DNA from: an uncultured Candidatus Saccharibacteria bacterium
Lineage (GTDB): Bacteria; Patescibacteriota; Minisyncoccia; Phycocordibacterales; Phycocordibacteraceae
NCBI GenBank assembly: GCA_964646315.1
Contig: CAZYDN010000002.1
Coordinates: forward strand, 962 to 64,961
DNA: 64,000 nt
Reading direction: 5' to 3'
Both the position numbers and the translations under genes were made by a program. The notes below the pieces were generated by a model, which worked only from the letters and a program-made list of their open reading frames with translations, did not search any database and was not told the origin of the DNA. Positions 2,196 through 56,528 of this stretch are shown here, piece by piece. Every line of letters starts with the position of its first letter. Within the stretch, counting starts at the first letter, position 1.

Positions 2196-3314
2196 ATGAA
2201 GAAACTACTATTCCTATTCGCCTTCATCGCCGTACTCACTATGACCGCGCCCAGTGTGTCTTATGCGTGTAGTCCAGGGCCCGGCTACCCACCATCTGCT
2301 TCAGAGAATCTCACTAAGAGTGATGTGGCTTTTGTAGGTACGGTAAAAAGTGTTGCTCAGGACAAGAGTATAAACGGTGACTACCACGTCACTTTCGCTG
2401 TCGGCGAAACCTATAAGGGTTCTGTAGGTGAGACGGTGACGGTGCGTACTCGCTCGAGCTCTGCTGCATGCGGATACGACGACGGATATGCAGCATTCAA
2501 AGCTGGCACGGTATGGGCTATTTATGCAGACGGAAACGGAACTGACGGCTATTCTACCGACAGTCTTTCTCTAAACAAAAGCTACAGCTCGGTATCAGTG
2601 GCTACTAAAGCTATGGCCGCTCTTGGCTTCACTCCGGTAGACGAGGAAGAGCCAATGGCGTGTACTCTGCAGTACGCTCCTGTGTGCGGAAAGGCAGCCG
2701 ACAACACTATCAAGACGTATGGAAACTCTTGCGCACTTGCAGCAGGAAAAGCCACTCTTCTCTATGAGGGAGAGTGTAGTGTAGACGCACAAGCTCCAAA
2801 GAAAGACTTGCAGCATGGTAGTCGGGGAACAGACGTAACGTGGCTCCAGCACTTTCTTATAGGAAAGAATGTGGGGGCGGCGGCAAGAGCGCTTATGGCG
2901 GTAGGTACTACAGGCTACTTCGGTCAGCTCACTAAGAACGCCCTCGCGGAGTTTCAAGCTGCATTCACAATCACTCCTGCTCACGGATACTTTGGCGTAA
3001 AGACTCGTGCAGTAATAAACGGGAACCTACACACCCCGACGACATTCACCGGCAAACTTTCTGCAGTAGACACAAGCTGCTTTGCTGATGGAGTTTGTAG
3101 CGTTACGGTGGATGGCAAGAAAGTCATTCTTCTTACAGGTATGCGAATCAATATTCCTCCGGTCGGCTCAATTAAGGGAGTAGAGTCCATTGGCGACCTT
3201 GAGAGCAGGATTGGTTCTGAGGTAGAAGTGTACGCTGTCGCGACGGGGGAGAGTGGTGCAGACTACACCCTCTATGGAAGTACCTCGTACTATGTAAAAG
3301 TATTGGGGAAGTAG
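2196..3314 (+). CDS. secreted multi-domain protein: signal peptide, TIMP/NTR-like OB domain beginning at the mature-protein Cys (CSPGP...SSAACG), Kazal-type inhibitor domain (C-x6-PVCG-x5-TYGNSC), peptidoglycan-binding domain (PG_binding_1-like)
   Basis: The signal peptide would be cleaved after SYA, leaving an N-terminal Cys-Ser-Pro as in TIMPs. The Kazal cysteine pattern and PG-binding-like repeats were seen in the translation. A terminator follows. Confidence 0.65.
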   Translation: MKKLLFLFAFIAVLTMTAPSVSYACSPGPGYPPSASENLTKSDVAFVGTVKSVAQDKSINGDYHVTFAVGETYKGSVGETVTVRTRSSSAACGYDDGYAAFKAGTVWAIYADGNGTDGYSTDSLSLNKSYSSVSVATKAMAALGFTPVDEEEPMACTLQYAPVCGKAADNTIKTYGNSCALAAGKATLLYEGECSVDAQAPKKDLQHGSRGTDVTWLQHFLIGKNVGAAARALMAVGTTGYFGQLTKNALAEFQAAFTITPAHGYFGVKTRAVINGNLHTPTTFTGKLSAVDTSCFADGVCSVTVDGKKVILLTGMRINIPPVGSIKGVESIGDLESRIGSEVEVYAVATGESGADYTLYGSTSYYVKVLGK

Positions 3315-3337
3315 AGGAACCTCAACGTACTTAAACA

Positions 3338-3368
3338 TTAAAACCGCCCGAAAGGGCGGTTTTAATTT
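3338..3368. terminator. bidirectional rho-independent terminator (aaaaccgcccgaaagggcggtttt)
   Basis: GC-rich hairpin flanked by A-run and T-run between convergent genes. Confidence 0.7.
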
Positions 3369-3413: not shown

Positions 3414-4430
3414 TTACTTGCTTCCTGGTGCCCTGGAGCGATCAACCGCAATTGCGTACTCTCGCATAATATCTTGAACACTGAACACTGCAATCCCGTA
3501 TCGCCACGAGTTCGCTTCTTTGGGTTCCACTATAGTTTGTGAACGTGCCTGATAGAACAGAAAGAATTCCTCCCCGATTATCCACGAGCTTGCGTGTCCA
3601 TTCTCACCGTTCTCCCATTCTTCCGTATTCTCTGTAGAGAGCACGGGGCCCAAGCTCACGTACGGACCCTTGATATCGTTGGCAATCGCAAAGAACACAC
3701 GCTGTCTTGTCCCGCGTCTCCCTTCAGCTAGAAAACAGGTGGCGTTCAGAAGAATTTTCCCATCGGGGAGGGGTACGACCTCTGGTCCCTCGATACCCCA
3801 TTCGTAATCTGGATGCTCGCGACCATTATGGTGCCACTCAATATCTTCGTGCCGTAAGATTGCCTTTACTCGTTTCCAGTGACCAGACCAATACTCCGTC
3901 GTGCTCTTCGCCAGATATACATCGGGCTGGGGAGCAGGGAACAGATGCGCAGTATCCGCCTTCCTGTCGGGTATGGCAGCGTACACCAGATATTTTCTTC
4001 CAGAAACGGTACAAAGCTGGGGGTCATATAAGCCTGACTCCATTTCACTCGTAGGGCGCATAAGTGTACGCATTTTGGTGAATATGTGCCCGTCTGCAGA
4101 CACCAGGTAGGCAATACCTCCACCAACATGTATGAAATCTTTCTGCACAGCCATGTGGAAAAGATGGTCATCAAAATCGTAAACCACAGATGGTGCCGCC
4201 ACATGAATACCATCGACGCCGCGAAGCACTGCAGGAGCTTGCTCTACCCACGGCCCCTCTATGGACGGGGCGGTTGCATGAAGTATTTCCCATTCCTCGC
4301 TTACGGTCGTACCGCCGGAACCATAGATATGCCAGGTAGTACCATCAAATGCTATACAGGGGTCTTTAACATCCTTAAAATGCGTGGAATCAAATAGAGG
4401 TCCTATTTTTCGTATGGGTGTAAGTGCCAT
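3414..4430 (-). CDS. glycoside hydrolase-like beta-propeller protein (GH43/GH32-like)
   Basis: N-terminal motif DPCIAFDGTTWHIYGSGG and repeated W/Y-rich blades; 338 aa. Confidence 0.5.
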   Translation of the reverse strand: MALTPIRKIGPLFDSTHFKDVKDPCIAFDGTTWHIYGSGGTTVSEEWEILHATAPSIEGPWVEQAPAVLRGVDGIHVAAPSVVYDFDDHLFHMAVQKDFIHVGGGIAYLVSADGHIFTKMRTLMRPTSEMESGLYDPQLCTVSGRKYLVYAAIPDRKADTAHLFPAPQPDVYLAKSTTEYWSGHWKRVKAILRHEDIEWHHNGREHPDYEWGIEGPEVVPLPDGKILLNATCFLAEGRRGTRQRVFFAIANDIKGPYVSLGPVLSTENTEEWENGENGHASSWIIGEEFFLFYQARSQTIVEPKEANSWRYGIAVFSVQDIMREYAIAVDRSRAPGSK

Positions 4431-4568: not shown

Positions 4569-5045
4569 ATGATTTCAAAAAATACTATCTGTCTCTGGTT
4601 TGAAAAGGATGCATTAGACGCTGCAAATTTTTATGCAGCAACGTTCCCTGATAGCAAAGTAGGAGCAGTTTTTAATGCGCCCAGCGATTTCCCTGGAGGG
4701 AAGAAGGGCGACGTTCTGACTGTCGAATTTACCGTTTGCGGCATTCCTTGCATGGGTCTTAATGGTGGACCGGTGTTTCCCCAAACTGAGGCATTTTCCT
4801 TTCAAATCGCCACGGACTCTCAGGAAGAGACCGATCGTTATTGGAATGTAATCGTAGAGAACGGTGGCAAGGAGAGTGATTGTGGCTGGTGTAAAGATCG
4901 CTTTGGGGTCTCGTGGCAGATTACGCCGCGCACGTTAACTGAGGCGCTTGTAGCTGGCGGGGAAGAAGCGGAGCGGGCTTTTAACGCTATGATGACCATG
5001 CAGAAAATAGACGTAGCGACTATCGATGCTGCACGTAAGGGGTAA
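4569..5045 (+). CDS. PhnB-like / 3-demethylubiquinone-9 3-methyltransferase-domain protein (VOC/glyoxalase superfamily)
   Basis: The N-terminus CLWFEKDALDAANFYAATFPDSKV is typical of PF06983-type proteins. Confidence 0.65.
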   Translation: MISKNTICLWFEKDALDAANFYAATFPDSKVGAVFNAPSDFPGGKKGDVLTVEFTVCGIPCMGLNGGPVFPQTEAFSFQIATDSQEETDRYWNVIVENGGKESDCGWCKDRFGVSWQITPRTLTEALVAGGEEAERAFNAMMTMQKIDVATIDAARKG

Positions 5046-8215: not shown

Positions 8216-10585
8216 ATGAAGGCAAGGCGGGGAATTGTTCTATTTGCGCTGGTAACAGTGGCATTTTTCTGTGGAGGGGCAACCCTTACGCATGCGCAGC
8301 TATCTCTCACTAGTGGAAGTAATGCCACCACCACCCCGAGTGTCGCCACCTCCATTACGGGCTTTCAGATTGTGGGAGACGCTGCTTCAACTACACCGGT
8401 GAAGCTCTACACCACAAGCGGCACGCTCACCATGACGACCACGACGGGTCTTACCTTTGATGGAAGCTCGTCTGGTTCGGTTATTTACTTTAGTGGTACG
8501 GTCGCAAACATTAACGCGGCATTAGCCACGCTTAAGTATTCACGCGCAAGTACTGGTACCGACACGCTCGAGGTATCTCTGGTAAACAACGGCGAAGTTT
8601 TCTTTACTACAAACAATCACCTTTATAAATTTATTACCGGTAGTTACAACTGGAGTGCTGCCAAGACTGCGGCTGAGGGTCTTTCTGCATATGGAGCTGC
8701 AGGATACCTCGCCACCATTACCTCAGATGCAGAGAATACTTTTGTCTCGGGGCGTCTCACGGGCGACGGATGGATAGGAGCGAGTGACTCCGGAACTGAA
8801 GGTACCTGGAAATGGGTAACGGGCCCAGAAGCAAACACCTCGTTCTGGCAGGGTACTGGAGGCGGAAGCACAGTGGGCGGAAACTACGCTCACTGGGCTA
8901 GTGGGGAGCCTAATCAGGCTGGGGAAGAGGACTGTGCGGAAACGTATGTCTCGAGTGGTACCTGGAATGATTTCCCTTGCTCTGCGACACTCGGGTATGT
9001 TGTTGAGTACGGGACCCCAAGCGCATTGCCAACGGTTGTTGCTCGTAATATTTCAGTTGTAACTGCGGACGTGCCGGCAATTACCACGCTCTCGCCAGCA
9101 AACGCCGCTACAAGTGTTAGCAGTACTGCTAATTTGGTTATCGGTTTTAGTAAGTCAGTGACTGCGGGGACGGGGAATATCACTATTAAAAAATCTTCCG
9201 ATGATAGTATTTTTGAAACTATTGACGTAACGGGCGGTCAGGTCACGGGAGGGGGATCAAGTTCAATCACCATAAACCCAACGGGAACATTCGCGGACAA
9301 TACACAATATTATGTACTCGTGCCATCGACTGCATTTAAGGATGGTTCAAACAACTATTTTGATGGTATATCAGCTACAACTACGTGGACATTTACCTCC
9401 GGTGACTTTACTGCGCCAAGCATTAGCTCCGTCACCGCAAGCTCTACAGCCTCTGCTACCGCACAAGTTGCCTGGACCACAAATGAACTCGCCTCATCAA
9501 AGGTTAGCTACGGACCAACTTCTTCGTACGGAACCACCACTACCATTTCTGATACCTCTCCTCGGGTGCTTTCACATACGGTGTCTCTTTCCCGTCTGCT
9601 TGCTTGTACTACGTACCATTACGCAGTGGTCTCTGCAGATGCGTCCTCTAATATTGCTACCTCTACCGACGGCACGTTTATTACAAGTGGGTGCGTGGCA
9701 AGTACTACTCCAACAGCAGCTACTTCTACAAACGTTACCACTAGTAGTGGTGGGTCCACTACGCTCACAAACAGCAATGCCACTATTACGGTGAGTGCTC
9801 CTAGTAACTTCACCGCAACAACTAGCTCAGTAGTCATTCAAGTGCAAGCGATTCCCCAGGCGGACATTGTGGGGACTGTAGGTACACCTGCTTCAGGAGT
9901 TACAAAGGTTGGAACAATTGTGTTTGACGTGAAGGCAATCATCGATTCGAGCACCGTGCTTGATTCGTTTGACGCTCCAGTCACTATTACCTACACCTAT
10001 ACCGATGCAGACATTGCGGGTCTCGATGAGTCCAGCTTAACGCTCTATCACTACCACAACAGTGCATGGATAGAGCTTGATAGCTGTACCGTAACAGCGA
10101 GTACCAATACTATTTCCTGCACAACTCCTAATTTCTCCATTTTCTCTCTGTATGGACAGCCACTCTCGACTGCAAGTACCCGGGGGCGCAGTACCAGTAT
10201 CGCAACAGTATTTGGATGCAAAGATGTAACGGCGGCTAACTACAATTATTTCTCTGTCAGTAAGCCCTCACTATGTGTGTATGCACGCACCGCTACAGCA
10301 TCTGCACCTGTAACATCTGCGAGCATTTTTACTCGTGATTTGAAGACGGGAAGTTCAGGAACCGACGTGCGTGCACTTCAGCAGTTTCTTAATACTCACG
10401 GGTATCCTGTAGCACTGAAGGGGGCAGGGTCTCTAGGAAATGAAACCACTACCTTTGGAGCGCTCACTCGTGATGCTCTAGCGAAGTTTCAGGCTGCAAA
10501 CAAAATTGCACCAACGCAAGGATATTTCGGTCCACTTACTCGTTCTAAAATAGTGGGAATTTTTACTGTTGCGAATGCCCGCTAG
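8216..10585 (+). CDS. large secreted surface protein: signal peptide, canonical C-type lectin domain (WIG..D..EGTWKW..G...W...EPN...EDC...G.WND..C), Ig-like/FN3-like domains, Thr/Ser-rich linkers, C-terminal peptidoglycan-binding domain
   Basis: CTLD signature residues seen in aa about 140-265. The C-terminal block (GTDVRALQQFL...) is related to the C-terminus of the 2196-3314 protein. Confidence 0.7.
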   Translation: MKARRGIVLFALVTVAFFCGGATLTHAQLSLTSGSNATTTPSVATSITGFQIVGDAASTTPVKLYTTSGTLTMTTTTGLTFDGSSSGSVIYFSGTVANINAALATLKYSRASTGTDTLEVSLVNNGEVFFTTNNHLYKFITGSYNWSAAKTAAEGLSAYGAAGYLATITSDAENTFVSGRLTGDGWIGASDSGTEGTWKWVTGPEANTSFWQGTGGGSTVGGNYAHWASGEPNQAGEEDCAETYVSSGTWNDFPCSATLGYVVEYGTPSALPTVVARNISVVTADVPAITTLSPANAATSVSSTANLVIGFSKSVTAGTGNITIKKSSDDSIFETIDVTGGQVTGGGSSSITINPTGTFADNTQYYVLVPSTAFKDGSNNYFDGISATTTWTFTSGDFTAPSISSVTASSTASATAQVAWTTNELASSKVSYGPTSSYGTTTTISDTSPRVLSHTVSLSRLLACTTYHYAVVSADASSNIATSTDGTFITSGCVASTTPTAATSTNVTTSSGGSTTLTNSNATITVSAPSNFTATTSSVVIQVQAIPQADIVGTVGTPASGVTKVGTIVFDVKAIIDSSTVLDSFDAPVTITYTYTDADIAGLDESSLTLYHYHNSAWIELDSCTVTASTNTISCTTPNFSIFSLYGQPLSTASTRGRSTSIATVFGCKDVTAANYNYFSVSKPSLCVYARTATASAPVTSASIFTRDLKTGSSGTDVRALQQFLNTHGYPVALKGAGSLGNETTTFGALTRDALAKFQAANKIAPTQGYFGPLTRSKIVGIFTVANAR

Positions 10586-11303: not shown

Positions 11304-11858
11304 ATGTCCGAATTCAAGAAGAAATTTAGTAGAGACAGCAAGCCAGGCGGATTTTCCCGTGGTGGCGCTAGTCGCTCAAACTTTGGTGGTGACCGACGCC
11401 AAGACAGTCGTGGATTTGATGCTCCAAAGGAGCTCTACAAGACTTCGTGTGCAAAGTGCCAGAACGCTTGTGAGGTACCATTCCGTCCAAACGGTATGAA
11501 GCCGGTGTACTGCAAAGATTGTTTCGTGCGTGACGACGAGCGTTCTCCTCGCGACTCCTTCCAGAAGAAGAGTTTCGGAAACGACCGTCCTTCATACGGA
11601 AACGATCGTGCACCTGCTCGTGCGGCTGCACCAGTGGAGGATTACCGTATCGGTGCAATCCTTAAGGAGCTTCAAGCAGTTCATGCGAAAATTGAACACC
11701 TAAGTGCACAGCTCTCAAACACCGCATACTCTTCGATTCTTTCTGGCTCTACGGAGAAATCAAAAAAGGAGGAAGTCAAGGAAGTAAAAAAGGCACCCGC
11801 TGCAAAGAAAGAAGTAAAAATTGCTAAGGTAGCAAAGAAAGTTTCCAAGAAAAAGTAA
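11304..11858 (+). CDS. zinc-ribbon protein (CxxC...VPFRPNGMKPVYCKDC) with RGG-rich N-terminus and Lys-rich C-terminal tail; likely nucleic-acid binding
   Basis: Promoter TTGCAA-17-TATAAT lies upstream. A terminator follows. Confidence 0.6.
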   Translation: MSEFKKKFSRDSKPGGFSRGGASRSNFGGDRRQDSRGFDAPKELYKTSCAKCQNACEVPFRPNGMKPVYCKDCFVRDDERSPRDSFQKKSFGNDRPSYGNDRAPARAAAPVEDYRIGAILKELQAVHAKIEHLSAQLSNTAYSSILSGSTEKSKKEEVKEVKKAPAAKKEVKIAKVAKKVSKKK

Positions 11859-11874
11859 GAAGAAATTGCAACGT

Positions 11875-11903
11875 AAAAAGGCCTCTCTGAGGCCTTTTTA
11901 CGT
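11875..11903 (+). terminator. rho-independent terminator (aaaaaggcctctctgaggccttttt)
   Basis: Hairpin plus T-run. Confidence 0.7.
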
Positions 11904-11936
11904 ATATACGACAGAACCAGGTCCAATGGGTAACAT

Positions 11937-11965
11937 TTGACTAAACCAATATACCTATATATAAT
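11937..11965 (+). promoter_or_regulatory. near-consensus sigma70-like promoter TTGACT-17bp-TATAAT
   Basis: Seen in sequence, about 30 bp upstream of the small ORF at 11993. Confidence 0.5.
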
Positions 11966-11992
11966 AATAGCAGGTGTTAGAAGGGAAAAATC

Positions 11993-12154
11993 ATGGGTAT
12001 TTTTTCGGCCGGCCCTTTGGGGGCAGTTGTCGGACTCCTTGCCATCGGCGTCTTCGTTGGCGGTGGACTCGCGTGGACGATTCGAGGAGGTTGGATGCGC
12101 CAGCCCAAAAAGAAGAAAACGGGCAGATTCACCATGTTTCCAGCCAACGACTGA
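11993..12154 (+). CDS. unannotated small membrane protein (53 aa, MGIFSAGPLGAVVGLLAIGVFVGGGLAWTIRGGWMRQPKKKKTGRFTMFPAND)
   Basis: ATG with AAGGG SD 8 nt upstream, a single TM helix, and a hairpin (12166-12200) downstream. It is below the ORF-track length cutoff. Confidence 0.4.
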   Translation: MGIFSAGPLGAVVGLLAIGVFVGGGLAWTIRGGWMRQPKKKKTGRFTMFPAND

Positions 12155-12252
12155 GGTGCTCTAACGGGGCCGGGGTGATATACACCCCGGCCCAACTTTT
12201 ATACTCTTTACCACTCTGCAAATTGGGTTTCCAGGTGAGATATACTATAGGT

Positions 12253-13047
12253 ATGGAAGCACTATACATATCTCTCGGTCTATTGTTTTGCTACATGTGT
12301 GTGGCATTTGGTATTTCACTTATTCGCAGGGATAACGGCACTGCCGATATTGCGTATGGGTGGGGTTTTGCGCTCCTTGCGTGGACTACCTATCTATTCG
12401 GCACACAAAGCGTTATTGGTTTTATCGTGAGCGTTCTTGCCTCGGTGTGGGCACTGAGACTCTCACTTCGTATATTTTTACGCAGTCGAGGAAAGCCAGA
12501 AGATTTTAGATATGCGAAGTGGAGGGCACAGTGGGGTAGGCACTTCGCGGTACGGAGTTTCTTGCAGGTGTATATGTTGCAGGGTGCCGTCATAGCCGTC
12601 GTTGCGCTTCCGGTAACACTGCTTAACGTATATGGAGGAGAGGTGGGGCTGGGAACCGCGGGCATGATAGGACTTTCCTTGTGGATAATTGGATTTCTTT
12701 TTGAAACAATCGGAGACGCCCAATTAGGAAAATTTATGAAGGACTCGGCAAATAAGGGTCATGTCATGAGTAAGGGTCTGTGGCGATTTACTCGCCACCC
12801 CAACTATTTTGGCGAGTCACTTATGTGGTGGGCGCTTTCGCTCGTTGCCTATGACACGCTCATACTTACCGCAGGATTGCCCCTTGCTCTCGTGCCCTTT
12901 GTTGGGGCGATGCTCATTACGTTCTTGCTTTTGAAAGTGTCGGGCGTACCTCTTCTTGAGGCTCGCTTTGCAGGGAACCCTGAGTGGGAAGCGTACAAGA
13001 GGCGAACCAGTGTGTTTATTCCACTTCCACCTTCTCGCAAAAAATAG
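12253..13047 (+). CDS. DUF1295 / steroid-5-alpha-reductase-like membrane protein (RHPNYFGE motif)
   Basis: The hydrophobic protein starts at MEALYISLG. The ORF-track N-terminal extension from 11974 is non-membrane, overlaps the sORF and hairpin, and is judged spurious. Confidence 0.65.
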   Translation: MEALYISLGLLFCYMCVAFGISLIRRDNGTADIAYGWGFALLAWTTYLFGTQSVIGFIVSVLASVWALRLSLRIFLRSRGKPEDFRYAKWRAQWGRHFAVRSFLQVYMLQGAVIAVVALPVTLLNVYGGEVGLGTAGMIGLSLWIIGFLFETIGDAQLGKFMKDSANKGHVMSKGLWRFTRHPNYFGESLMWWALSLVAYDTLILTAGLPLALVPFVGAMLITFLLLKVSGVPLLEARFAGNPEWEAYKRRTSVFIPLPPSRKK

Positions 13048-53728: not shown

Positions 53729-53816
53729 GGAGGCGTCGCATAGCGGTCTAGTGCACCATCTTGGAAAGGTGGCGTGTCGAAAGATACCGAGAGTTCGAAT
53801 CTCTCCGCCTCCGCCA
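53729..53816 (+). tRNA. tRNA-Ser (anticodon GGA), long variable arm, CCA encoded
   Basis: Hand-folded: acceptor GGAGGCG/CGCCTCC, anticodon stem CCATC/GGTGG, loop TTGGAAA, T-arm GTTCGAATC. A TGTGATATAA -10 lies upstream. Confidence 0.85.
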
Positions 53817-56163: not shown

Positions 56164-56182
56164 AGCGTGGTATAATATATAC

Positions 56183-56528
56183 ACTGGCTCAGACGATCGC
56201 TGTAGTGTTCCTCGGAATACTGCAGAGGAAAGTCCGAACACAGGCACTACGCAAGTGGTGCAGAAAGGTAGCGGGTAATGCCCGTCCGCAGCGATGCGCG
56301 AGGTGCGAACAGTGACGCCGGGAGCGAAAGCAAACGGCATCTCTTTGAGATGAACTTTGTGGGCGACCACAAAGATGAAACGGCTAAATCCTTACCCCTG
56401 TGCAAGGCCGTGCCCACCACTTGCTGGTGTGGAGCGCCGCTCGAGGTAGTTGGTAACAACTATCCCAGATAGATGATCGTCCGCAGGTTTTCCTGCGACA
56501 GAATTCGGCTTATCGAGCCAGTCAAAAA
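56183..56528 (+). ncRNA. rnpB: RNase P RNA (bacterial type A), rnpB
   Basis: CR-I GAGGAAAGUCCG, the GGUAAUGCC P11 motif, and a 3' region AGAUAGAUGAUCGUCCGC...GACAGAAUUCGGCUUAUCGAGCCAGU matching E. coli M1 RNA. P1 pairing ACTGGCTC/GAGCCAGT. An extended -10 TGGTATAAT lies at 56168-56176. Confidence 0.85.

Follow-up and report, generated by a model that had tools for sequence, protein, structure and literature searches.

A secreted Patescibacterial protein joining a TIMP-like domain to Kazal and peptidoglycan-binding modules

Tissue inhibitors of metalloproteinases (TIMPs) are commonly regarded as having arisen in animals for control of the extracellular matrix, and to our knowledge few bacterial metalloprotease inhibitors are known. 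The subject of this analysis is a gene at positions 2196–3314 on the forward strand of a 64,000-nucleotide stretch of DNA (positions 962 to 64,961 of contig CAZYDN010000002.1, assembly GCA_964646315.1, from an uncultured Candidatus Saccharibacteria bacterium), the whole of which is referred to here as the window. Behind a signal peptide, its 372-residue product combines a domain related to the TIMPs and to netrin-like (NTR) modules, a Kazal domain, a peptidoglycan-binding module and a further C-terminal domain, making it a candidate inhibitor of two classes of protease at the cell wall.

A bacterial TIMP-like protein has been described in Listeria monocytogenes, where Tim is a lipoprotein whose lipobox (LTAC) lies ~50 residues ahead of the TIMP-like region; its likeness to TIMPs is structural only, it is of mobile-element origin, and its gene is always paired with that of a metzincin, Mtz (PMC8235301). 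The Mtz–Tim pair alters cell-wall properties, and the authors of that 2021 study stated that they could trace no earlier description of a bacterial protein resembling TIMPs in structure (PMC8235301). Single-domain TIMPs of ‘various Eubacteria’ appear as a passing mention in another source (PMC3516229, citing Brew & Nagase 2010), and our literature search on bacterial or prokaryotic TIMPs and on Patescibacterial protease inhibitors returned the Listeria paper only. The window protein resembles Tim in having a TIMP-like fold in a single-membrane bacterium and, as predicted here, a functional link to the cell wall; it differs in its signal peptidase I (SPase-I)-type site, in the position of Cys1 at the start of the fold, in having no adjacent protease gene, and in its extra Kazal and peptidoglycan-binding modules.

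In metazoans, WFIKKN1 and WFIKKN2 are multi-inhibitor proteins built from WAP, follistatin/Kazal, immunoglobulin (Ig), Kunitz and NTR modules. They parallel the window protein in placing a Kazal-type and an NTR/TIMP-like domain in one secreted chain, a multi-class inhibitor design, but their domain order and partners are different, they have no wall anchor, and their origin is independent, so that the likeness is convergent. The NTR module of WFIKKN is C-terminal and therefore has no free N-terminal cysteine. In one source WFIKKN is listed as a netrin-domain protein (PMC3516229).

Domain architecture and conservation

The 372-residue protein is almost certainly composed as follows, N and C denoting the first and last of its four domains.

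2196–3314, forward strand: TIMP-like/Kazal/peptidoglycan-binding gene; complete open reading frame (ORF) of 372 residues, ATG at 2196, stop codon at 3312–3314
2196–2267, forward strand: signal peptide, residues 1–24 (MKK, hydrophobic core, SVSYA); predicted SPase-I site Ala24/Cys25
2268–2645, forward strand: TIMP/NTR-like domain (N) of the oligonucleotide/oligosaccharide-binding (OB) fold, residues 25–150; mature N terminus Cys25-Ser26
2454–2480, forward strand: SSSAACGYD motif, residues 87–95; Cys92 is the equivalent of TIMP-2 Cys72
2646–2783, forward strand: four-cysteine Kazal domain, residues 151–196; Cys156, Cys164, Cys179 and Cys194
2784–3050, forward strand: PG_binding_1 helical domain, residues 197–285; Pfam core at residues 210–273 (nucleotides 2823–3014)
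3051–3311, forward strand: C-terminal β-rich domain (C), residues 286–372 (87 residues), function unassigned; invariant Cys295 and Cys301

At the predicted cleavage site, Ala24 (gcg, 2265–2267) is followed by Cys25 (tgt, 2268–2270) and then by Ser26-Pro27, which is the Cys-Ser-Pro start read by the initial annotation of this DNA. The segment Ser87-Ser88-Ser89-Ala90-Ala91-Cys92-Gly93 is encoded at 2454–2474, and the Kazal-like loop, Cys156-Thr-Leu158-Gln-Tyr-Ala-Pro-Val-Cys164-Gly...Thr-Tyr-Gly-Asn-Ser-Cys179...Gly-Glu-Cys194, at 2661–2777. An AlphaFold2 model of the whole protein has a mean predicted local distance difference test score (pLDDT) of 85.5.

Homologues number 108, of which ~58 are full length with identical architecture. 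Where the organism is named, all come from metagenome-assembled Patescibacteria (Paceibacterota, Adlerbacteria, ‘Patescibacteria group’), and in a scan of one genome per species full-length copies were confined to metagenome-assembled genomes of Paceibacteria-type Patescibacteria. The Ala24/Cys25, SSSAACG and Kazal motifs are invariant or nearly so in 51 full-length homologues sharing 53–88% identity; chance resemblance of these short motifs was rejected on the strength of this family-wide conservation and of the structure searches described below. Within the window, no paralogues of the N, Kazal or C modules were found.

The modules occur as N-Kazal-PG-C, N-PG-C, Kazal-PG-C and PG-C (PG denoting the peptidoglycan-binding module), and the C domain is also found alone behind a membrane helix. 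The anchors are interchangeable, the N-Kazal head being joined either to PG-C or to a Pro-rich linker and hydrophobic tail. Three short N-Kazal forms without the PG-C modules (P0072, P0085 and P0087) have an enlarged Kazal loop that has gained two cysteines (KDTGIRCVTTPC...). Behind it come a linker rich in Pro and Ser and a hydrophobic C-terminal tail rich in Trp (for example, WQRFWTGLKQVIFFWR), which may be an alternative surface anchor.

Fold of the N-terminal domain

Modelled alone with AlphaFold2, the N domain reaches a pLDDT of 95.1 and a predicted template modelling score (pTM) of 0.88. At the top of a Foldseek search of the Protein Data Bank (PDB) with the N domain are TIMP-2, TIMP-1 and N-TIMP-3 (probability 1.00), followed by the NTR domain of PCOLCE, agrin NtA and complement C345C (also probability 1.00); TM-scores relative to N-TIMP-1 and N-TIMP-3 are ~0.65. 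The comparison with TIMP-2 that the initial annotation had proposed thus returned an OB/NTR fold with TIMP-2 as its first match. The modelled domain is a five-stranded OB-type β-barrel with NTR-specific helices. Generic OB folds (SSB, RecO and editosome proteins) reach scores of at most 8.6, with 65–86 residues aligned; the likeness is therefore to the NTR version of the OB fold in particular and not to OB folds at large. As modelled, the fold is closest to that of an inhibitory TIMP.

A bacterial family of TIMP-like domains

A profile built from 47 N domains was searched against 1.84 billion (1.84e9) cluster representatives, matching 1,852 of them at E ≤ 1e-3, of which 55 reach E ≤ 1e-10. Outside the Patescibacterial subfamily, most matches are small secreted proteins of 130–200 residues. 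Among 115 distant relatives examined, the predicted mature start is Cys-X-Cys preceded by A-x-A in 111, with Ser or Thr at +2 in 96; 66 of the 115 match the Pfam TIMP family (PF00965) at E ≤ 0.01 (best 1.3e-9), five match NTR and two NtA. Two of the proteins, P0133 and P0140, score 32.2 and 26.4 bits on PF00965 (cut-off 23.1), in each case from model position 1–2, and are reached by the N-domain profile at E = 4.7e-12 and 1.0e-11. By this link to proteins that match PF00965, the window N domain falls, as a diverged member, within a large family of TIMP-like domains in bacteria, and by fold and transitive homology the protein belongs to the TIMP/NTR superfamily, as had been suggested for its N-terminal part. 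The expectation that the protein would be unusual among bacteria holds for its architecture alone: judged by these profile matches, TIMP-like domains are widespread in bacteria.

The single-domain bacterial proteins (A-x-A/C-S-C..., 130–200 residues) match along almost the entire domain, at E values of ~1e-12 to 1e-8, and share the signal-peptide/Cys1 layout, the SAACG(Y/F) motif and a WKG or YKG motif. Proteins of this kind keep Cys-X-Cys and two predicted disulfides, most consist of the one domain, and some carry type IX secretion (T9SS) or other sorting tails, whereas the window subfamily has one predicted disulfide fewer, is a four-module protein with a putative wall anchor, and is restricted to Paceibacteria-type Patescibacteria.

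Fusion of the TIMP-like domain to other inhibitor domains recurs across the family. In P0245, from a second lineage, a Cys-Ser-Cys-type TIMP-like domain is fused to a Kazal domain; in P0219 the partner is BsuPI, of a subtilisin-inhibitor family, both matches being above cut-offs; and in P0115 and P0122 the partners are pacifastin-like modules, matched below cut-off (E ~3e-5 to 7e-5). Pacifastin is regarded as an arthropod family. In nearly every fusion the chain opens with the TIMP-like domain, immediately behind the signal peptide. The strongest indirect case that the domain may inhibit through its N terminus comes from this strict placement and from its repeated joining to serine-protease inhibitors of unrelated families, and the fusions lend support to reading the window protein as a wall-tethered inhibitor of two classes.

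The N domains of P0115 and P0122 are close relatives of that of the window protein (E ~1e-31 to 1e-24); these proteins contain 14–20 cysteines, and their pacifastin matches score 23–24 bits against a cut-off of 27.9. Two other bacterial proteins, P0170 and P0173, have two or three tandem TIMP-like domains; internal copies cannot have a free N-terminal cysteine, and a Cys1 mechanism is therefore not open to every domain of the family.

Cysteine register and mature N terminus

In the hhalign register with the N domain of human TIMP-2 (the sequence used is identical to PDB 1br9), SSAAC92G falls on SSAVC72G and YKG on FKG. In a joint MAFFT alignment Cys1 is aligned throughout, with Cys25 on TIMP-2 Cys1 and Cys92 on Cys72. 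The likeness of SSAACG to the TIMP motif, claimed by the initial annotation, is thereby borne out (within residues 87–93), although the motif lies in the middle of the domain, at the equivalent of the C–D loop, and not at its end; of the TIMP-like start, Cys1 and Ser2 stand and the second cysteine of Cys-X-Cys does not, its place being taken by Pro27.

The bacterial Cys-X-Cys proteins keep the equivalents of both Cys1–Cys72 and Cys3–Cys101 in the MAFFT alignment, and the Cys13–Cys126 pair is absent from all bacterial relatives aligned. The window subfamily has Pro or Val in place of Cys3 and DSLS in place of the TNLC that holds the Cys101 equivalent; the loss of the two together points to cysteines paired as in TIMPs. 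Exactly two cysteines of the N domain, Cys25 and Cys92, are invariant in the subfamily, and a disulfide between them is predicted; in TIMPs the Cys1–Cys72 pair ties the zinc-binding N terminus to the C–D loop. Conservation of the N domain peaks at Cys-Ser and at SSSAACGYD, and the equivalents of these two segments form the protease-binding ridge in TIMPs.

Animal TIMPs (PF00965; N-TIMP-3, 3cki; TIMP-2, 1br9) have in common with the window protein the mature Cys-Ser start directly behind the signal peptide, the SSA-x-CG cysteine in register with TIMP-2 Cys72, the (Y/F)KG strand motif and, as predicted here, zinc chelation by Cys1. They differ in sequence (~15% identity to the window N domain) and in having the Cys3–Cys101 and Cys13–Cys126 pairs, making three disulfides to the predicted one. 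The window protein has a 4–5-residue insertion behind CGYD and an N-terminal segment that is 2–3 residues longer; in place of the TIMPs’ own C-terminal domain it has the Kazal, PG_binding_1 and further domains.

In each of the 76 subfamily members the N domain begins right behind the signal peptide. Ala occupies position −1 in every one of them and position −3 in 63, position −2 being F, Y, Q, E, L, D or H; the pattern A-x-A/Cys-Ser is present in 74 and Cys-Lys in the other two. A strict lipobox, [LVI][ASTVI][GAS]C, is found in none of the 76. In the AlphaFold2 model, residues 3–16 form a helix and residues 17–24 have a pLDDT of <50. The residues at −3 and −2, the missing lipobox and the paired loss of cysteines favour SPase-I cleavage at Ala24/Cys25 and a disulfide-bonded Cys1.

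The Kazal domain

In Pfam, Kazal_1 matches residues 154–185 with 22.8 bits (E = 9.5e-5; cut-off 21). Searched against PDB sequences by phmmer, the query returned Kazal inhibitors only (E ~3e-3), and a family profile of 23 Kazal segments gave 41 PDB matches at E ≤ 0.01, all of them Kazal inhibitors, the best being Anemonia elastase inhibitor (1.3e-8). The initial annotation was therefore right about the domain, which it called textbook, and wrong about the spacing it quoted (C-x6-PVCG-x5-TYGNSC): the real motif is C-x5-PVCG-x8-TYGNSC. Silk protease inhibitor 2 of Galleria mellonella (2m5x/4hgu) is matched end to end over 40 residues, four cysteines included (E = 3.7e-8).

Cys156, Cys164, Cys179 and Cys194 correspond to Cys2, Cys3, Cys4 and Cys6 of the classical domain, whose six cysteines pair 1–5, 2–4 and 3–6 (PMC1236909). 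The Cys1–Cys5 pair is missing in every family member; the window domain further differs from classical Kazal domains in a 4-residue insertion between CG and TYGN and in forming part of a bacterial protein of several domains. Kazal domains with two disulfides can be stable and inhibit at nanomolar strength, although the Phytophthora domain tested lacks a different pair, 3–6 (PMC1236909).

The reactive loop consists of Cys156 (P3), Thr157 (P2) and Leu158 (P1, nucleotides 2667–2669), followed by Gln-Tyr, with Asn177 at the equivalent of ovomucoid Asn33. Aligned with turkey ovomucoid third domain (OMTKY3), the query loop (PMACTLQYAPVCG against KPACTLEYRPLCG) places CTLQY...TYGN on CTLEY...TYGN; PMAC-T-L-Q-Y-A-P-V-CG is nearly the same as KPAC-T-L-E-Y-R-P-L-CG, CTLQYAPVCG being nearly identical to CTLEYRPLCG, and P1 is Leu in both. 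In OMTKY3, which belongs to the Laskowski standard-mechanism inhibitors, P1 is Leu18. Cys156, Tyr160 and Gly176 are invariant in the family, and Thr157 and Asn177 are found in at least 90% of it. Nearly all homologues have Met or Leu at P1, and targets of the chymotrypsin, subtilisin or elastase type are therefore predicted.

Peptidoglycan-binding and C-terminal domains

PG_binding_1 (PF01471) matches residues 210–273 (25.8 bits against a cut-off of 23), and the module fits both this family and the three-helix fold of solved peptidoglycan-binding domains; it is predicted to bind peptidoglycan. The initial annotation had recognized this module but placed it at the C terminus, which is formed instead by the 87-residue C domain (residues 286–372). 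Often the best conserved of the four modules, the C domain is 60–93% identical across full-length homologues; its predicted strands (residues 282–293, 300–305, 308–314, 325–327, 342–349 and 366–371) have pLDDT values of mostly 87–96. Elsewhere in Patescibacteria it occurs in the PG-C pairs or behind a membrane helix as described above.

In five membrane-anchored Patescibacterial proteins (P0092, P0099, P0100, P0101 and P0104), a C domain without inhibitor heads adjoins a conserved eight-cysteine module (GGCSxQLC ... TCEY ... CY ... CERQ ... GxCGWT ... C). Neither the C domain nor this module received a family assignment in the libraries scanned; for the C domain, some relatives carry a precomputed PF27854 assignment.

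Proposed mechanism and alternatives

On balance we favour the picture of a secreted, wall-tethered protein with two inhibitor heads of different class. After Sec export, signal peptidase I would cut at Ala24/Cys25, leaving a free α-amino Cys-Ser end on the OB-fold domain, and oxidative folding would form disulfides 25–92, 156–179, 164–194 and 295–301. By analogy with TIMPs, the Cys25–Cys92 disulfide would join the N terminus to the SSAACG loop in a ridge that enters the active-site cleft of a metalloprotease, where the amino and carbonyl groups of Cys25 would chelate the catalytic zinc, as the N-terminal cysteine of TIMPs does (PMC9409782), and Ser26 would enter S1′. In the second head, the Kazal loop (Cys-Thr-Leu158/Met-Gln-Tyr) would block chymotrypsin-, subtilisin- or elastase-type proteases by the Laskowski mechanism. 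Serving as the anchor, PG_binding_1, probably together with the C domain (residues 197–372), would fix the protein in the cell’s own peptidoglycan with both heads outward, concentrating inhibition at the cell surface.

Several observations weigh against inhibition by the N-terminal head. Many NTR modules (agrin NtA, complement C345C and the C domains of netrins and sFRPs) bind other molecules and do not inhibit. The Pfam scan that the initial annotation had proposed finds Kazal_1 and PG_binding_1 in the query and neither TIMP nor NTR, even at E ≤ 10, an outcome that the initial annotation had listed as refuting its TIMP/NTR reading; a scan of NCBIfam gives no match. By themselves these direct scans bear out two of the three domains then proposed, both narrowly, and not the most interesting one. 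Searches of PDB sequences with the N domain, by phmmer and by family profile, returned nothing significant, N-TIMP-2 appearing only at E = 1.2 in the profile search among chance matches (YjiK, adenovirus fiber and haemagglutinin), and hhalign of the N-domain alignment against TIMP-1 to TIMP-4 is weak (probability 35%, E = 4e-4). With Pro27 in place of Cys3 the Cys-X-Cys start is incomplete, and the segment from Cys1 to the first helix is longer than in TIMPs, as noted above, so that the geometry of the inhibitory ridge may differ. Because the query has no direct Pfam match, no Cys-X-Cys and fewer than three disulfides, we name the domain ‘TIMP-like’ and not a TIMP. No biochemical report on any member of the bacterial family was found in the literature searched. 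No protease gene adjoins the gene in the window, and none is consistently linked at three homologous loci on long contigs, so that the neighbourhood points to no target. Tim itself is cleaved by its metzincin Mtz and was not demonstrated to act as an inhibitor (PMC8235301).

A serious rival by analogy, in the spirit of the Listeria Mtz–Tim pair, is an endogenous role in wall remodelling, in which the tethered protein would restrain the cell’s own wall-active metallo- or serine peptidases, such as autolysins, DD/LD-peptidases or processing proteases. We consider it unlikely: no peptidase gene is co-located, whereas mtz and tim are consistently adjacent (PMC8235301); the canonical Kazal loop, with Leu or Met at P1, seems better suited to secreted serine proteases of broad specificity; and the head domains are found with anchors other than peptidoglycan binding too. 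Since no cognate protease gene is linked to it, the inhibitor is more likely to have exogenous targets, that is, proteases of hosts, predators or competitors.

The behaviour of other NTR modules also allows the N domain to serve in binding, its ligand being a protein or a glycan such as one on a host surface; the whole would then be an adhesin or wall protein whose inhibitory activity, if any, lies in the Kazal domain. Against the N-terminal position and the repeated inhibitor fusions reported above, we give this reading a low likelihood. Highly improbable, and rejected here, is a membrane-anchored lipoprotein in which SPase II cuts before Cys25 and this residue, at +1, carries the lipid, which would make the N terminus unusable as a TIMP-like zinc ligand: a cysteine right after the signal peptide is a hallmark of lipoproteins, a permissive PROSITE-style lipobox fits 43 of the 76 subfamily members and Listeria Tim is a lipoprotein (PMC8235301), but the standard lipobox is absent from all 76, Glu, Asp, His or Gln is frequent at position −2, Ala at −3 in 63 makes an A-x-A SPase-I site, the paired loss of Cys3/Cys101 and retention of Cys1/Cys72 imply a disulfide and not a thioether at Cys1, and a separate wall anchor is already present.

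Implications

All components of the window protein are of known kinds; what is new is the four-module architecture, its restriction to Paceibacteria-type Patescibacteria, and the TIMP-like variant with a single predicted disulfide. A Patescibacterial surface protein is hereby tied to the TIMP family by a confident structural and transitive sequence link. Should the N-terminal cysteine mechanism operate in bacteria, it would bring a new class of bacterial metalloprotease inhibitors and a testable molecule for wall protection in ultra-small bacteria, which are thought to be attached to other cells. The four-module design, with two putative inhibitor heads of different class and a wall anchor, moreover offers a compact template from nature for displaying protease protection on a surface. 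If the protein is no inhibitor, it is still a well-conserved, lineage-specific wall protein of modest interest.

Possibly the more valuable lead is the bacterial TIMP-like family of ~1,850 clusters, apparently without biochemistry. We tentatively suggest, as a rather doubtful extension, that its Cys-X-Cys members are true functional prokaryotic TIMPs with a zinc-chelating Cys1, to which Patescibacteria added a Kazal domain and relatives added pacifastin-like or BsuPI modules, giving multi-class surface shields. Behind such shields, ultra-small cells with an exposed wall would withstand lytic metallo- and serine proteases, whether from a host, a predator or a competitor. A Cys1 mechanism in bacteria would change the evolutionary story of the TIMP/NTR modules, and a functional prokaryotic TIMP family would point to an origin of the module in bacteria or to an ancient transfer between bacteria and animals.

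Transcription unit and gene neighbourhood

The gene is monocistronic, with genes on the opposite strand on either side (1583–1951 upstream and 3414–4430 downstream). Between it and its convergent neighbour lies one further feature:

3337–3366, no strand assigned: hairpin UUAAAACCGCCC GAAA GGGCGGUUUUAA, between the two convergent genes (2196–3314 and 3414–4430)

RNA folding gives the hairpin −20.7 kcal/mol (z = −5.95), and none of 200 shuffles is equally stable. A consensus terminator scan did not pick it up; its sequence has the shape of a bidirectional intrinsic terminator. Flanked by opposite-strand genes and followed by this strong 3′ hairpin, the gene forms a transcription unit of its own.

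Neighbours in the window comprise a small membrane protein, DUF2200, a weak GH43-like protein, a 3-demethylubiquinone-methyltransferase-like protein (3-dmu-9_3-mt), PAP2 and DUF1761. At two homologous loci a peptidase gene is nearby, a Zn_peptidase two genes from the homologue in L001 and an M50 peptidase in L004; neither is conserved. As a clue to the target protease, the neighbourhood was dropped, no protease being consistently adjacent in the window and at the three loci.

The convergent gene at 3414–4430 (reverse strand) encodes 338 residues with no obvious N-terminal signal peptide; its match to glycoside hydrolase family 43, at 29.7 bits, stays below the cut-off of 32.2. In the window, DUF2200 (942–1310) and 3-dmu-9_3-mt (4569–5045) both lie near the TIMP-Kazal gene. 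At locus L002, genes for an MliC-family lysozyme inhibitor and DUF2200 (~11530–12312) lie ~4–5 kb downstream of the TIMP-Kazal gene; DUF2200 being near that gene in both, loose synteny between the window and L002 is suggested.

The sole other window protein with a peptidoglycan-binding module is encoded by a 789-residue ORF at 8216–10585 (forward strand), with Lectin_C (E = 4e-12), the bacterial Ig-like domain Big_5 and a C-terminal PG_binding_1; this putative wall-anchored C-type lectin protein could be a host-binding adhesin. Further along the window are a bacterial class A RNase P RNA (118 bits; 56181–56528, forward strand) and a tRNA (53729–53813, forward strand). The GC content of the window is 46–54%, and its cumulative GC skew climbs almost monotonically.

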